Source: a virus
Strand: one strand, 5' to 3'
DNA length: 64,000 bases
Virus record (IMG/VR): IMGVR_UViG_3300028535_000001
Below the pieces are notes generated by a model. It was not told the DNA's origin. It was given only the letters and a program-made list of their open reading frames with translations, and ran no database searches. Positions 16,045 to 21,613 of the stretch are shown one piece after another. A program made the translations under genes and the position numbers. Within the stretch, counting starts at the first letter, position 1. Each line of letters begins with the position of its first letter.

Positions 16045-17214
16045 TTAGAATCCCTCCGCTACAGTATGTTTAGTCATAATTTCTGTTTCACCAAACTCTA
16101 AATCCATTTTAATAATAGTTGGCGGTGCGCCTTTTTCATCTGGTATTAATGATGATACAACACCTTCGGGTGCATAATCAATATTACATGATTTTAAAAC
16201 ACAGCGGCTAACTCTTGGTATATATGAGTTTTCACTTTCTCTGTACATATATGTTATTTGAAATTCAGATGGTGTTATGAAATATCCTCCTTGAAGACCA
16301 TTTGATTGTTCAGGTAACATATGAAATCTTAACAATTGTAAAATTTTGTGTACTTGGTCTTTCTCTGACTCATCTTTTGGTGCAAATATAAATGGAAAAT
16401 TAAATGATCTAAATGGCACAGATTGGAATATCATTTCTAAATTTTGGTTCTTTGCTTGACCTAATGCTTTGTCTAATGTTTGTCTAGCATTTTCAAAACC
16501 TGGTATTATACCAATAGCCCCAAATCCAGCTGACTTCATTACTTCACCAATCAGTTGACCGCCTTTTTTACCAGCTGTTTTTATTTTATCTATCCAACCA
16601 GTTTGATTCATAACAGAACCAATAGCTTGGCCTAAATCACCTGCTAAACCTGTTTGTGTATCTTCATAACCCACACTGTAATTAAATTTCATTGACTCTG
16701 CTGGCGTATATAATATAATACTATCTGAAATATAATTATGCGTATCACCTGTTTTGGATACTAGACCAGAAGATGTTGATCTTAATCTGCTGGATTGGGA
16801 TATGCCATTTCTTTTTATGTTTGCTATTCTAGTTCTACTGCCTTTGGGTTTATGGCGAGCTTCAAAACCAGATAGTGTTTTACCACCATCTAATTGTCCA
16901 TTCTGAAAAGTCTGTTGTTTAAATTTGGATGATTTGTGAGATACAATATCAAATATAATATAATGGCCGGCACCTAAATTAGATGTTTCATTTGGATAGT
17001 ATACTGTACCATATTGATATGGATTATTTATAGACTCCATATGTGATAATGGACCTGTTGTTCCTATCTCTAACGGCGATTTGTTTAATAGTTTGGCTGC
17101 CACTTTGGTTGTTTGACCAGATGAGGCAAAGGATAATTTACTAGCAATTGCGCCAGAAACCATGTTACCTATTTTACCTTTAACTATGTTTTTGATCTTG
17201 TTTGTCCAAGCCAT
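16045..17214 (-). CDS. 48: Baseplate tail-tube cap gp48
   Basis: NQNLEMIFQSVPFRSFNFPFIFAPKDESE..PSEF..CVLKSCNIDYAP; start set at 17214 after AGGA SD and late promoter. Confidence 0.82.
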   Translation of the reverse strand: MAWTNKIKNIVKGKIGNMVSGAIASKLSFASSGQTTKVAAKLLNKSPLEIGTTGPLSHMESINNPYQYGTVYYPNETSNLGAGHYIIFDIVSHKSSKFKQQTFQNGQLDGGKTLSGFEARHKPKGSRTRIANIKRNGISQSSRLRSTSSGLVSKTGDTHNYISDSIILYTPAESMKFNYSVGYEDTQTGLAGDLGQAIGSVMNQTGWIDKIKTAGKKGGQLIGEVMKSAGFGAIGIIPGFENARQTLDKALGQAKNQNLEMIFQSVPFRSFNFPFIFAPKDESEKDQVHKILQLLRFHMLPEQSNGLQGGYFITPSEFQITYMYRESENSYIPRVSRCVLKSCNIDYAPEGVVSSLIPDEKGAPPTIIKMDLEFGETEIMTKHTVAEGF

Positions 17215-17240
17215 ATTTACTTCCTTTATATATACTGGTA

Positions 17241-17248
17241 TATTTATA
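17241..17248 (-). promoter_or_regulatory. Late promoter TATAAATA for gp48
   Basis: Exact motif in the gp48/gp4 divergent spacer. Confidence 0.75.
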
Positions 17249-17254
17249 ACGGAT

Positions 17255-17683
17255 ATGAAGAAATCTTTTAAAGGATTATATAAACCAGAGAACCCCAAAA
17301 AATATGTTGGTGATGTAAAGAATATAATATACCGTTCTCTTTTAGAGAGACGTATGATGGTGTATTTAGATAATAGTCACAATATAGAACATTGGGCTAG
17401 TGAAGAATTGCCTATTAGATATTATAGTCCCATTGATAATAAATGGCATAGATACTTTCCAGATTTTGTAGCAAAGACAACTAAAGGTAATAGGGTAGTA
17501 ATTGAAGTTAAACCATCACGCCAATGTGTTCCACCTAAAAAACCAACTAGCAGAAAAACTAAATCTTATATGAGAGAGTCTCTTGAATATATCAGAAATA
17601 AGGCTAAATGGCAAGCCGCTACCAAATATTGTAAAACTCAAGGTGCTGAATTTAAAATTATTACTGAAAAGGATTTAACCTAA
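17255..17683 (+). CDS. 4: Head completion nuclease gp4
   Basis: KGLYKPENPKKYVGD..IIYRSLLER..WASEE..HRYFPDF..IEVKP; likely start 17255. Confidence 0.92.
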   Translation: MKKSFKGLYKPENPKKYVGDVKNIIYRSLLERRMMVYLDNSHNIEHWASEELPIRYYSPIDNKWHRYFPDFVAKTTKGNRVVIEVKPSRQCVPPKKPTSRKTKSYMRESLEYIRNKAKWQAATKYCKTQGAEFKIITEKDLT

Positions 17684-19152
17684 TCTGTCCAACGACTATC
17701 CGAAGTATCTATTATAGTTCCATCTTTTGAATCATCTACAACACTAATATTTGCATTTGAAGCTTGACTGTTATCAGTAACTACGTTATTAAAAATGCTT
17801 GTATCAATACCTTTTTTTGCTAAATAATCGTTATTAGCTAAATTCAAAGCCTCAAATTCTGCTACAGCGTCTTTTTGCGCTTTCTTGTCTTCATAAAATT
17901 TTTTATTGCTGTTATATGCCAAAGGAACAGTAACTTCCAGTCCTTTATCAGCCTTATCCATTTCATCTTTGATTGTAGGTATTTTTCCAGCTGTTGCTGT
18001 AGACATTAAATCCATTTCTAAATCTGCTATCTTTGCCGTTAGTTTTGCTATCTTTTCAGGATCTTGGTCATCGGACCAGAAACCACTACCTGGAGCTGAT
18101 TTAGATTTTTCATCTGCTAATTTATTTTGTAGTTTTTTAAGTTCATCTGATTTTGCTGCTTCACCTTCCTCATCTACTAAACCTAATTTTCTACCTAACC
18201 ATGAATATTTGAACCAATCCATCAATTTTTTGAAGAATTGCCCAATTGCTTTTATCTTTGTTGCAACAAAAACAATAGCAGCAATTACCAATGCAAATTT
18301 AGCAATCAATATTAATCTAGCAAGTGAGAAAAAACCACCTATTGCTTTTAAACCTTTCCAAAGACCTTTAAATGCTTTTAAGAATATACCACCAGTTAAG
18401 AAATTAACTAGTTCTACTGAACCCTTACCTGTATCTTTCATCATATTAAAAGCTTCACCTATAGCATGAAAAGGTTCCATGAAAGCCATTTTTAATTGAT
18501 CTAAAAACATAGGCAATCCTTTAGATTTTTGTCCTGTGTTGGCAGTGACGTTAAGTGTATCGCCTGAAGTATCTTTATCTTTTTTTAATTTATCTAGTTC
18601 TTTTGTATTAGCAACTATTCTATCTTTTGTTGTTTTCTTTTCTTTATTGGATAAACTATCCCCAACCTGTAATTTTTTTCTATCTCTATCTAATTCTGTT
18701 TCTATTTTTGTAATATTCTTTTCTTTTAATTTAAATATCTTTTCTTCTTGTCTTATTTGTGATCTAGTTAATACTTCAACCTCTTTGGTCTCTTTATTAA
18801 CACGTGCAACAATATTTTGTTCTCTTAATTTTGTTACAGTCTCCTCTGACTCTCTGGCCTTTGTTTCTCTTTGTATCAATAAATCTGCCAACTCTGTACT
18901 GTATTCTCTTAAATCTAGACCTAACTTTTCAACCAATTTTTCTAATTTCACAATCACTCTTGTAAAACTATGAACAGGACCTTTCTTCAAATCAACTGTT
19001 AACTCATTTATCATTTTAGGTATATTGGGTAGAATAGTCTTAGCTGAGGCTGCAATTGAGCTGTTAACCTTTGCCTTTATTATCTGACCTAAACTGTCAA
19101 TCGCTTGTTGTGTTTGGTCTGTACCTTGGTTTTCTACTATTGGTAATGCCAT
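17680..19152 (-). CDS. Putative tape-measure-like protein (gp29 position)
   Basis: Long coiled coil, central hydrophobic segment, Asn/Ser-rich tail; downstream of gp26/gp51. Confidence 0.5.
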   Translation of the reverse strand: MALPIVENQGTDQTQQAIDSLGQIIKAKVNSSIAASAKTILPNIPKMINELTVDLKKGPVHSFTRVIVKLEKLVEKLGLDLREYSTELADLLIQRETKARESEETVTKLREQNIVARVNKETKEVEVLTRSQIRQEEKIFKLKEKNITKIETELDRDRKKLQVGDSLSNKEKKTTKDRIVANTKELDKLKKDKDTSGDTLNVTANTGQKSKGLPMFLDQLKMAFMEPFHAIGEAFNMMKDTGKGSVELVNFLTGGIFLKAFKGLWKGLKAIGGFFSLARLILIAKFALVIAAIVFVATKIKAIGQFFKKLMDWFKYSWLGRKLGLVDEEGEAAKSDELKKLQNKLADEKSKSAPGSGFWSDDQDPEKIAKLTAKIADLEMDLMSTATAGKIPTIKDEMDKADKGLEVTVPLAYNSNKKFYEDKKAQKDAVAEFEALNLANNDYLAKKGIDTSIFNNVVTDNSQASNANISVVDDSKDGTIIDTSDSRWTD

Positions 19153-19157
19153 ATTAG

Positions 19158-19517
19158 TTATTTATCTTTACCCTTATCTGATCCTGCATATAATCCGAAC
19201 CAGGCAGCGCCAGCACCAACAACAACAGAAATTAATCCTGATTGTTCCATACTAGGTTGTCCTAATTCCATATACCATATTACACATTTGTATAATAATA
19301 TAATATACGTTGTTATGAATATTCTAGGGAATATTCTCCAACTATCTATTGCTCTTGCTAAGTGAATCCATTTTCCATATGGGTTTACGCCTATGTCTCT
19401 GATTGAGGTATCCACATCAAGATCAACCCTAATTTTTTGTTTAGGTTCTTTTACTGCTACAGGTTCTAACTTTTTTTCTATTTTAATTTCTTTAATTTCT
19501 TTAATTTCTTCTGACAT
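19158..19517 (-). CDS. Two-TM membrane protein (holin-like)
   Basis: SWRIFPRIFIT..SGLISVVVGAGAAWFGLY. Confidence 0.5.
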   Translation of the reverse strand: MSEEIKEIKEIKIEKKLEPVAVKEPKQKIRVDLDVDTSIRDIGVNPYGKWIHLARAIDSWRIFPRIFITTYIILLYKCVIWYMELGQPSMEQSGLISVVVGAGAAWFGLYAGSDKGKDK

Positions 19518-19518
19518 A

Positions 19519-19725
19519 TTATTCCTCCCTTATAATATATTTAATTGGATAATCTGATTTAACAACTATCTTTTTTTCAGTTTCTACATTCCAAAAAGCA
19601 ATATGGTTTGGTTTAATCTCAACAAACTTTTTAACTTGTAAAGTTTCTGACTTGCCTTCAAACCAATAAGTTAATTGTGCAGGATGTCCTACAATCCAAT
19701 ACCATATGTTTTTTAGTATGCTCAT
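19519..19725 (-). CDS. Hypothetical protein
   Basis: ORF coupled to the gp51 stop, GGAG SD. Confidence 0.55.
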   Translation of the reverse strand: MSILKNIWYWIVGHPAQLTYWFEGKSETLQVKKFVEIKPNHIAFWNVETEKKIVVKSDYPIKYIIREE

Positions 19726-19850
19726 TATTTCTCCCTTTTTCTTTTTTCATTTTCTTCTTTAATATAATTAATTAACATCGTAACGTAAATATCACGTTCC
19801 CATGGTATCATATGTTCAATCTCGGTAATGCTATACTTATGATGTTGCAT
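19725..19850 (-). CDS. 51: Baseplate hub assembly protein gp51 (probably reached by -1 frameshift from gp26)
   Basis: MQHHKYSITEIEHMIPWERDIYVTMLINYIKEENEK; frame stays open upstream to the slippery site at 19907-19913. Confidence 0.8.
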   Translation of the reverse strand: MQHHKYSITEIEHMIPWERDIYVTMLINYIKEENEKRKREK

Positions 19851-19879
19851 TAACGAAAAGTTTACTTCAAAAAACGCCT

Positions 19880-20614
19880 CTAGGCTACTATGGGTGAGGC
19901 CAATCCGAAAAAATCGTTGAGTCCTTCAAAGGTCACTTTACTTTTAACACCTGTCTTTGGATTTGTGACTTCTTGCGTATGTCTCAATCTAGGCATAGTA
20001 TCAAAAAATTTTCTAATTTTATCAAAAGTACCTTGTGGCATTTTCTCAAAAAATTCTTTTAATTCTTCTTTAGTAGTATCTACTCCAGGGTACACTTTAT
20101 CTCCTTCAAAAACTTCGTGTACACAACCTAACATTAAATCAAATACAGTATCGTAATCAGCGTCCTTTAACGTTTTGCTGTTTATCATTGCCATCGTAGG
20201 ATATTTGAGAACAACACCCAATTGCCTAGTGTCATCAAATACTACTTTGTTTGTATGTCCATCATCTACTTGGACCTCAATCTTTGATATGTCAATTTCA
20301 ATATCTGTATAAGTTTTCTTATCGTCTGGACATATAACTTGAAATTTTGATATTTCACCAACTGACTTTGCTCTTATTTGTAAGAACATATACTCAATGT
20401 CAAATGTAGGCAAATTTAAAATATCTATTTTGTTAAATGTACAAGCACCTAAAACTTGTTTGGTTGCTTCTTGTATTTGTTTTTCTTCACCAGACTCTAG
20501 AGCAATCAACATCATTTTTTCTTCTTTTACAAGAAAAGGTCTAAATTTAACTTTTGTTTCTTGCGAAGGTAATGTCAACTCATAAGTTGGTGTTTCTATT
20601 ATCGGTAATGCCAT
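19880..20614 (-). CDS. 26: Baseplate hub assembly chaperone gp26
   Basis: MALPIIETPTYELTLPS..KFRPFLVKEEK..FDIEYMFLQIRAKSVGE..EGLNDFF. Confidence 0.92.
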   Translation of the reverse strand: MALPIIETPTYELTLPSQETKVKFRPFLVKEEKMMLIALESGEEKQIQEATKQVLGACTFNKIDILNLPTFDIEYMFLQIRAKSVGEISKFQVICPDDKKTYTDIEIDISKIEVQVDDGHTNKVVFDDTRQLGVVLKYPTMAMINSKTLKDADYDTVFDLMLGCVHEVFEGDKVYPGVDTTKEELKEFFEKMPQGTFDKIRKFFDTMPRLRHTQEVTNPKTGVKSKVTFEGLNDFFGLASPIVA

Positions 20615-20632: not shown

Positions 20633-21613
20633 TTATATATTTATTGGTGGTAGTTTGAACGGTGGGAACACTCTACCGCCAGTAATTCTACCTAGTGGTG
20701 CTCTACGTCTCAAATTGTTCAATACGTCTCTACCTGCTCGTCTCAATTCTGGTGGAAGTTTACCTAATAAACCTCCAAATAAACCGGACTGTTCTTTTAC
20801 ACTTGGTTTTCCAAATTTAGGTTGACCAAGTTCTATGTTGCCTTGTTTGTCTAAAAAGAAATTAATCCAATACATAAATTTAAATGTAACTGTAAATGTT
20901 TGTACTGTATTTGAATCATGTGAATAATCTACTTTACTAATACTTGTTGGTAAACAATCAAACAATTGTACACCATATGTTATTTCGTCTCTCTCTTGTC
21001 TAGACGCAAATGATCCTAACTGATATATTCTCATATCTGACACGTAATTTTTATAGTAATTCATATTGAAAGATTTAGTACTGAAAGCGGCACTTTGCCA
21101 CATTTCAAAATATGATCTTTCTCTCATAAATTTATCTGCATAAAACGTTGCTGTAATCTCTGCTGATTTAAAATCAATTGCAACGTGTCTAGTTGGTGTA
21201 TTACCATGTCTAACTTCTTTGGTAACTATTTCTCTATCAGGCATTTCAATAGCACTACAAAATGCTTGAACACGTCTACCGTTTGCTATATGTACTGCAT
21301 TCATATCTTGAGCTGTAAAAAATGAATCATACGTTTCATCTGCCATAGATGAAGATACGGAACCTGCTGAACCATCTGGTCCACCACCTAAAGATTTAGG
21401 TAACATAAACTCAACATAAAATCTTGCCTTACGAGCAAAACCTTCTGCCTCATTTACCATAGCCTGCACTCTACCCATTGTAGATTCAGGATTACCACCC
21501 ATATTTCGTTTTAATCTTTTATCACCTGCCACATTGTCAAGTGATCTATCTCTCGGTATACCAATTCTAATATCGTATCCGCCTATTCTTTTTCCGCCTC
21601 TTAATATCGCCAT
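20633..21613 (-). CDS. Tail-tube-fold protein (gp54-like tube initiator)
   Basis: FCSAIEMPDR..ITATFY..YFEMWQ..LFDCLPTSIS..FTVTF, gp19/gp54-like pattern. Confidence 0.6.
   Translation of the reverse strand: MAILRGGKRIGGYDIRIGIPRDRSLDNVAGDKRLKRNMGGNPESTMGRVQAMVNEAEGFARKARFYVEFMLPKSLGGGPDGSAGSVSSSMADETYDSFFTAQDMNAVHIANGRRVQAFCSAIEMPDREIVTKEVRHGNTPTRHVAIDFKSAEITATFYADKFMRERSYFEMWQSAAFSTKSFNMNYYKNYVSDMRIYQLGSFASRQERDEITYGVQLFDCLPTSISKVDYSHDSNTVQTFTVTFKFMYWINFFLDKQGNIELGQPKFGKPSVKEQSGLFGGLLGKLPPELRRAGRDVLNNLRRRAPLGRITGGRVFPPFKLPPINI

Follow-up and report, generated by a model that had tools for sequence, protein, structure and literature searches.

A probable -1 ribosomal frameshift at the 3' end of gene 26 of a marine T4-like phage, joining gp26 to a gp51-like module

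The stretch of 64,000 nucleotides examined here (IMG/VR record IMGVR_UViG_3300028535_000001; 'the window' in what follows) carries, on the minus strand like all of the genes around it, a gene for a homologue of T4 gp26, a baseplate-hub and tail assembly chaperone of the T4 type. At the 3' end of this gene, a -1 ribosomal slip at the heptamer TTTTTTC probably yields two products in this marine T4-like phage: a short form of 244 residues and a long form of 296 residues that ends in a module resembling T4 gp51. Judged from the sequence of the window and its relatives, the probability of this reading is put at roughly 0.8. The principle is well established for the tail chaperone genes of lambda-type phages, in which a -1 frameshift generates gpG and gpGT (Levin 1993; Xu, Hendrix and Duda 2004, 2013, 2014; summarised in PMC5009743), and a review has described the G-T frameshift as a conserved feature of the long-tailed phages, 'except T4' (Atkins et al. 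2016; PMC5009743). In T4, gp26 and gp51 are regarded as hub assembly chaperones, gp51 being essential and absent from the particle (Leiman et al. 2010; PMC3004832).

The gene for the short form (20614..19880, minus strand) is assigned with little ambiguity: the family PF12322 (T4_baseplate) covers residues 8-236 of its product and profile positions 1-218 of 219 (E = 3e-65; 220 bits, against a cut-off of 24.5), and the phrog_150 profile ('baseplate hub') matches with E = 2e-70. Its 3' end reads GAT TTT TTC GGA TTG GCC TCA CCC ATA GTA GCC TAG, with the TAG stop codon at 19882-19880; the frame-0 C-terminal peptide is VTFEGLNDFFGLASPIVA. The heptamer T_TTT_TTC, read directly, lies within this segment at 19913-19907 of the minus strand, in the zero-frame codons (GA)T TTT TTC; since position 19913 is the third position of its codon, the site is in X_XXY_YYZ phase and is a canonical one. 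The -1 frame, which begins RIGLTHSSLEAFFEVNFSLMQHHK, is then open from 19907 to 19725 (minus strand), a run of 60 codons and a TAA stop codon at 19727-19725, so that the heptamer, its phase and the open frame are all found where the first-pass annotation of the window had placed them. The conceptual long form consists of gp26 residues 1-236 followed by the 60 residues of the extension, and its junction reads ..VTFEGLNDFFR, a tryptic junction peptide.

Residues 3-59 of the extension match phrog_634 ('baseplate hub assembly catalyst', that is, gp51) with E = 5.8e-27. The extension also matches the C-terminal positions 237-276 of phrog_150, the profile of the gp26 family itself (E = 1.7e-5), and some members of that family must therefore carry the same module in frame. 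The first start codon in the -1 frame is the ATG at 19850, and the 19 codons that precede it include no ATG, GTG or TTG. The segment ahead of this methionine (residue 20 of the extension), which includes IGLTHSSLEAFFEVNFSL, falls inside the phrog_634 match and is gp51-like, as the first reading of the sequence had proposed; the companion proposal, that the ATG is not preceded by a Shine-Dalgarno-like motif, also holds, the three neighbouring starts having AAGGAG, AGGGAG and GGGAGG. The ATG-initiated reading frame of 41 codons that gene callers would call gp51 (19850..19725, minus strand) is the distal portion of the extension rather than an independent gene. A comparison with NCBIfam gave no match for gp26, for the extension or for seven nearby open reading frames (ORFs).

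Corresponding junctions were gathered from the window, from IMG/VR relatives of its gp26 and of the gp26 of cyanophage P-HM1, and from named phages. Of the related loci, 167 extend as far as the junction (144 distinct gp26 sequences), and every one of these has the heptamer in phase, as TTTTTTC in 159 of them, TTTTTTA in seven and TTTTTTT in one; eight loci lacking it were set aside, and the four of these that were checked (L030, L058, L104 and L121) end at a contig edge inside gp26. The run of T's is six long in 166 of the 167 loci and seven long in Sinorhizobium phage phiN3, with none longer, and the last (Z) base of the heptamer is C, A or T, never G. In the seven TTTTTTA loci the frame-0 phenylalanine is replaced by leucine, yet the classical slippery pattern is retained, as it is in T_TTT_TTT; the variant sites preserve the slippery pattern rather than the amino acid. 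The frame-0 stop codon falls 0, 1, 2 or 8 codons past the heptamer, according to clade, and the -1 peptide FFR[IL]xL.. is conserved. Beyond the clade of the window, the same arrangement occurs in cyanophages (the freshwater cyanophage S-CRM01 among them), Vibrio phage nt-1, Sinorhizobium phage phiN3, Pseudomonas phage Astolliot, Cronobacter phage LPCS28, Stenotrophomonas phage YB07, Aeromonas phage 65.2 and Nitratidesulfovibrio phage SRB7757. Scans of IMG/VR with the single nt-1 or YB07 gp26 as the query returned near-identical genomes only. In every homologue examined, the gp51-like frame stands at -1 relative to gp26.

The nucleotides of the slip site are constrained beyond the amino acids that they encode. 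A codon alignment of the 144 distinct gp26 genes contains 95 columns with a conserved residue, and only the three slip-site codons are essentially free of synonymous variation (GAT in 97 of 97 cases, TTT in 144 of 144 and TTC in 136 of 137). Where the first of these columns encodes another residue, the codon likewise ends in T, and the remaining conserved phenylalanine columns are mixed, with 53-97% TTT. The signal is beyond chance, and two outcomes that the first-pass annotation had named as refuting its reading, a variable phase among homologues and a heptamer unconserved at synonymous sites, did not come about. The heptamer is, moreover, the exact point at which coding constraint passes out of frame 0 and into frame -1: on its 5' side variability is highest at the third positions of frame 0 (1.61 bits, versus 1.08 and 0.84 at the other two), and in the first 24 nucleotides on its 3' side it is highest at the third positions of the -1 frame (1.26, versus 0.65 and 0.34). 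The first ATG of the -1 frame wanders among the relatives from codon 3 to codon 44, and in 30 of 109 distinct junctions it appears only at codon 32-34. Independent initiation cannot be the general route to expression of this conserved frame.

A further body of evidence comes from comparison with T4, whose gp26 (208 residues) and gp51 (249 residues) both match PF12322, as the window gp26 does. In T4 gp51, that match covers residues 1-201 (E = 3.9e-52), phrog_150 matches residues 3-248 and phrog_634 matches residues 147-246. The protein aligns end to end, and across the junction, with the conceptual fusions of ten one-gene phages; its alignment with the window fusion spans both the junction, D[FV]F[RK][IL].., and the ..MIPxER.. 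motif. When the extensions were aligned by MAFFT as loose fragments, their first residue was placed directly after the 'DVF' of T4-type gp51. By these alignments, T4 gp51 is a full-length paralogue of gp26 in which this C-terminal extension stands in frame, and is the counterpart of the long form; T4 gp26, which ends ..GLKEFFELL, would be that of the short form, and T4 on the same grounds encodes the two forms as a pair of paralogous genes. The organisation found in T4 gp51 (a body resembling gp26 and, C-terminal to it, a helical module of about 50-60 residues) arises in the window only if the -1 frame is joined to gp26 at the heptamer.

T4 and the window phage would be alike in having a short and a long form of a PF12322 protein with a common body, and differ in how these are encoded: by two divergent genes, gene 26 lacking a slippery site, in T4, and by one gene and a heptamer in the window. 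The first-pass annotation had cast gp26 and a gp26-51 fusion as the equivalents, in T4-like phages, of the lambda proteins G and GT, and for phages with the one-gene arrangement that equation gains support from the conserved in-phase heptamer, from the common body of the two forms and from a match of the predicted fold to known chaperones (described below). It fails for T4 itself: genes 26 and 51 are adjacent and divergently transcribed there, so that a frameshift from one into the other cannot apply literally, and gp51 is a full-length paralogue. Among 11 two-gene loci (ten T4-type loci from IMG/VR, plus Acinetobacter phage Berthold) none is slippery at the junction position, and eight retain the two phenylalanines, coded by TTC TTT, which is not slippery. 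A relic slippery site in T4 gene 26 was considered as well and is ruled out, the position encoding TTC TTT. The gp26 proteins of the T4 type (L176-L188 and L189; L091:3803-3840) end in ..EFFELL, ..EFFKIMS or ..EFIRIL. These ends resemble the start of the extension (FFR-I-x-L) in frame, a likeness of sequence which suggests that T4 gene 26 may have come from a truncated in-frame long form.

The distribution of the genes follows the same division. T4 has two PF12322 genes, and the complete genomes of Mosig, P-HM1, nt-1 and YB07 have one each; no separate gp51 gene was found in the 64-kilobase window or in the complete genome of Mosig, the nearest isolate. By tblastn, about 1,375 records, chiefly from phages of enterobacteria, Acinetobacter and Aeromonas, contain gp51 at full length; the short 'gp51' arrangement occurs in 544 records, chiefly from cyanophages and vibriophages. 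In records of the latter phages the small gp51-like ORFs are annotated as 'baseplate hub assembly catalyst', and the gp51 of cyanophages and of marine vibriophages has been described as without the first ~200 residues and as similar to T4 gp51 at its C-terminus (Sullivan et al. 2010; PMC3037559). These annotated ORFs are the same segment of DNA as the window extension, with the difference that they are treated as separate genes beginning at any available ATG (codon 3-44), whereas here the segment is read as the -1 tail of gp26.

Sequences on either side of the heptamer might also contribute to a ribosomal signal. On the 3' side, a possible stimulatory stem-loop (19900..19876, minus strand) is formed by GCCTC at 19900-19896 and GAGGC at 19880-19876, with 5 base pairs, a 15-nucleotide loop and a 3' arm that overlaps the stop codon of gp26. 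The 45 nucleotides that follow the heptamer in the window fall at percentile 0.07 (the most stable 7%) among windows of the same gene, and across 103 distinct loci the median percentile is again 0.07, with a mean of -9.9 versus -4.8 kcal/mol. The 5' arm is rich in G+C (GCCTC or GCCCTC) and its 3' partner falls at codons that vary with the clade, a pattern that hints at selection on the RNA. The stem, followed by a G and six T's (19869-19900, minus strand), has a weak terminator-like look; a terminator scan found none at 19869-19900, and the T run after the stem is not conserved in close relatives. On the 5' side, a purine-rich GAAGGA at 19925-19930 (minus strand) lies about 10-14 nucleotides from the heptamer, its equivalent in Mosig being AAGGGAG. 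The stretch stems from a conserved glycine codon, which is GGA or GGG in 106 of 144 genes; by analogy with dnaX it could serve as an internal Shine-Dalgarno-like stimulator, a role inseparable here from constraint on the protein.

Several observations weigh against a ribosomal frameshift in the window, or against parts of that reading. The first-pass annotation had pointed to a hairpin 6 nucleotides downstream of the heptamer; it does exist at that distance, but folded alone it has an energy of -7.4 kcal/mol and is no more stable than dinucleotide shuffles of itself (z = +0.27). In stimulated shifts of the dnaX type the stem-loop is a stable one, 5-9 nucleotides past the heptamer. No clear stem is seen in Astolliot, LPCS28 or Aeromonas phage 65.2, and a stimulatory role for the stem is possible and unproven. 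The chief brake on confidence is the evidence, drawn from sequence comparison, that the gp51-like module can probably act as a separate small protein. Vibrio phage K474 (L192:1250-1510) is without the heptamer (its gp26 ends ..CTT TTT GCG TAA), and its small gp51-like ORF starts at a separate ATG, which overlaps the gp26 stop codon (TAATGATG); Aeromonas phage TSW001 (L191:1280-1545) is likewise without it (..CTT TTC ACT GTT TAA), and has a gp51-like ORF with its own ATG after a G+C-rich hairpin. In nt-1, YB07 and S-CRM01 the heptamer is present and an ATG overlaps the gp26 stop codon as well. In addition, insertion of a single U on the run of six T's would give an identical protein, so that the sequence alone cannot tell a ribosomal from a transcriptional slip. 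Finally, the match of the predicted gp26 fold to solved chaperones was not reproduced with a model of a T4-type gp51, for which the lists of matches are filled by other domains.

These observations bear most directly on an account without any recoding, in which the gp51-like ORF is expressed as a small protein of its own, either from the ATG at 19850 (41 residues) or by reinitiation after the gp26 stop codon. The separate ORFs of K474 and TSW001, the ATGs that overlap the gp26 stop in nt-1, YB07 and S-CRM01, and the 'baseplate hub assembly catalyst' ORFs of genome records are what such an account would lead one to expect. It does not accommodate the 19 leading codons of the window extension, which offer no initiation codon, are followed by an ATG without a Shine-Dalgarno motif and are nonetheless conserved as protein within the family match, nor the first ATG that shifts from codon 3 to codon 44 among the relatives; and it leaves unexplained both the invariant synonymous sites of the heptamer and the loss of the heptamer from phages with a separate full-length gp51. 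For the window, expression without recoding is accordingly judged decidedly improbable. Transcriptional slippage, in which RNA polymerase would add a U on the T6 run in some transcripts and ordinary translation would then give the same 296-residue form, draws on the fact that the site is a homopolymer (of seven T's in phiN3). Productive slippage by bacterial RNA polymerase usually takes about 8-9 or more identical bases, whereas the run here is held at six in 166 of 167 loci and never exceeds seven; the conserved element, moreover, is a phased X_XXY_YYZ in which Z is never G, and just downstream the RNA is more structured than is usual in this gene, as would befit a ribosomal signal. This mechanism is also regarded as improbable. 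An error of sequencing in a homopolymer, or a recent frameshift mutation, might be thought to have split a single gene of 296 codons, such runs being error-prone and T4 gp51 being an example of a viable long gene in frame. However, an identical run length and phase recur in 167 independent loci, from isolates and from metagenomes and across many projects, and the short form would be left with no other gene, whereas T4 keeps both; artefact or decay is thus very improbable indeed.

Under the favoured reading of a -1 ribosomal slip, most ribosomes would translate frame 0 to the TAG at 19882-19880 and release the short form, which would correspond to T4 gp26. A minority would pause on U_UUU_UUC (19913-19907) with tRNA-Phe in the P site and in the A site, move back in tandem by one base, and read 60 more codons in the -1 frame, to give the long form with its 'gp51' module, which would correspond to T4 gp51. 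By analogy with gpG and gpGT of lambda, both forms might bind the tape measure protein or the hub through their common body, and the helical C-terminal module of the rarer long form might recruit another component of the tail. We infer from these comparisons that the shift is ribosomal, and likewise its efficiency and the binding partners of its products; the two forms would be a pair of assembly chaperones for the tape measure or hub, as their homology to T4 gp26 and gp51 and the predicted fold both suggest.

The evidence from fold comes from an AlphaFold2 (AF2) model of the window gp26, built from a 59-sequence alignment with a mean predicted local distance difference test score (pLDDT) of 84.3, and searched exhaustively with VIA-align against 48,161 representative chains of the PDB. 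For residues 1-90, the three best matches were 3fgx (Z 7.6, root-mean-square deviation (rmsd) 4.2, 85 aligned residues), 2ob9, the tail assembly chaperone of HK97 (Z 7.4, rmsd 3.8, 84 aligned), and 3klu, YqbN (Z 6.8, rmsd 4.0, 85 aligned), with the next chain at Z 4.8. These are the three solved tail assembly chaperones (PMC9603447), and their agreement at the head of the list is striking though the Z scores are middling; for a model-based comparison, this is supportive, if not replicated. Foldseek found nothing significant in the PDB for either the gp26 or the gp51 model, and gave 2ob9 a probability of only 0.25 with the former. The long form was modelled via a natural in-frame T4-type gp51 from an IMG/VR locus (pLDDT 95.2), in which the extension is predicted to form helices from residue 196 to residue 248; the VIA-align matches of this model were generic helix hairpins (residues 205-249) and C1QBP-like chains (residues 103-174). 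When the 59 gp26 and gp51 sequences were compared with Pfam at E values up to 10, PF12322 was the only common family, and no Phage_TAC family was among the 25 most frequent matches. In a comparison of the gp26 model with BFVD, high-probability matches of fold were also noted in Bacillus phages SP-15 and BCD7, Ralstonia phage phiRSL1, Campylobacter phage CP220, Tenacibaculum phage PTm1 and Achromobacter phage Motura, all of them large phages that are not classical T4-likes.

Measured against lambda G and GT, the window locus has several points of likeness: a predicted short and long form with a common N-terminal part, a shift site at the extreme 3' end of the short ORF, a probable position between a gene of the tail-tube family and a tape measure candidate, products which by homology with T4 gp51 would be needed for assembly and absent from virions, and an N-terminal domain whose model has its best matches, of middling Z, in the chaperones 2ob9, 3klu and 3fgx. 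There are also differences. No sequence similarity to the Pfam chaperone families was detected, the window protein has roughly double the length, further domains being present past residue 90, the slippery sequence is U_UUU_UUC where the lambda type has G_GGA_AAG, and two small ORFs stand between the gene and the tape measure candidate.

The order of genes at the locus is a gp2-like end protector, a tube-family protein (phrog_45), gp26 with its extension, ORFs of 68, 119 and 490 codons, and a gp48-like tube cap (phrog_230). The tube-family protein (326 residues; 21613..20633, minus strand) is a gp54/gp48-like tube initiator by its match to phrog_45 (E = 1.3e-31), with a weak match to PF06841 (Phage_T4_gp19), and its orthologue in Mosig is annotated as 'baseplate tail tube initiator'. 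The 68-codon ORF (19725..19519, minus strand) has no family in Pfam, PHROG or NCBIfam. Its ATG overlaps the stop codon of the long form (TAATG) and its AGGGAG Shine-Dalgarno sequence lies within the last codons of the extension, an arrangement by which ribosomes that end the long form could couple directly into this ORF. The 119-codon ORF (19517..19158, minus strand) has a hydrophobic C-terminal part and matches phrog_10198, a family of unknown function (E = 4.5e-21). The ORF of 490 codons (19152..17680, minus strand) lies directly upstream of the gp48-like gene (16045-17298) and is placed, relative to gene 48, as is T4 gene 29, the tape measure gene. Its nearest named clusters in the Atlas are those of PF25671, T4_Tape_measure (0.93, with 157-158 shared features; a lead from a language model only), and a BLASTP comparison with T4 gp29 was not significant (E = 0.4); from gene order and the Atlas lead, it is probably the tape measure gene. 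The first-pass annotation had put the gp26-gp51 pair just upstream of a tape-measure-like gene, and the pair does lie upstream of this candidate, although not adjacent to it, the 68- and 119-codon ORFs intervening.

The pairing of gp26 and gp51 as chaperones had been published before the present analysis. Vladimirov, Gautam and Davidson (Virology 2022;566:9-15, PMID 34826709), as cited in the PRFect paper (PMC10885494), identified the two as tail assembly chaperones of T4-like phages, so that what the first-pass annotation had offered as 'not the textbook view' is, to judge from that citation, already on record. The paraphrase of the 2022 work given there says that certain T4-like phages have a short chaperone gene and a long one rather than a frameshift. 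In the literature searched, in which Vladimirov et al. (2022) is represented by its title and this paraphrase, no statement of a -1 site in gp26 was found. Among sequence records, GenBank MN709128 applies the name 'tape measure protein assembly chaperone' to gp26, gp51 and gp28 alike. T4 gp26 weakly matches phrog_1140 ('baseplate hub distal subunit', that is, gp28; E = 9.4e-4), and gp28 (T4 gene 28, L091:6349-6882) may be a distant third member of the chaperone group. The novelty of the window locus is limited to that extent, the principle of the frameshift being known and the gp26/gp51 pairing published: it is a well-supported, unannotated case of a known principle. About 20 records of T4-like phages were examined and none annotates gp26 as frameshifted, the extension being shown as a shortened 'gp51' that starts at an arbitrary ATG or not at all; correct annotation here would give a product of 296 residues.

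A broader and much more tentative reading, which we consider possible but rather doubtful, is that in T4-like phages (taking in cyanophages, relatives of pelagiphages, and phages of vibrios, rhizobia, Stenotrophomonas and Pseudomonas) the long tail chaperone was ancestrally produced by the -1 slip, which would also be far more frequent than any other route; the two-gene state of T4 and the split-ORF state of Vibrio phage K474 and Aeromonas phage TSW001 would then be derived. If that were true, and if the heptamer is not already in Vladimirov et al. (2022), this would be the first demonstration that the exception made for T4 fails for the T4 superfamily overall. The main reading, that of a slip in the window and its one-gene relatives, would by itself bring T4's long-puzzling 'catalytic' hub factor, gp51, into the general logic of short and long tail chaperones in long-tailed phages, and would make of the gp26 family a natural experiment, in which the ratio of short to long form is set by a slip, by two genes or by a split ORF. 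Slip sites of this kind, whether or not accompanied by a stem or a neighbouring stop codon, could also serve as models of recoding in cyanobacteria and in hosts of the SAR11 type, where it has hardly been studied.

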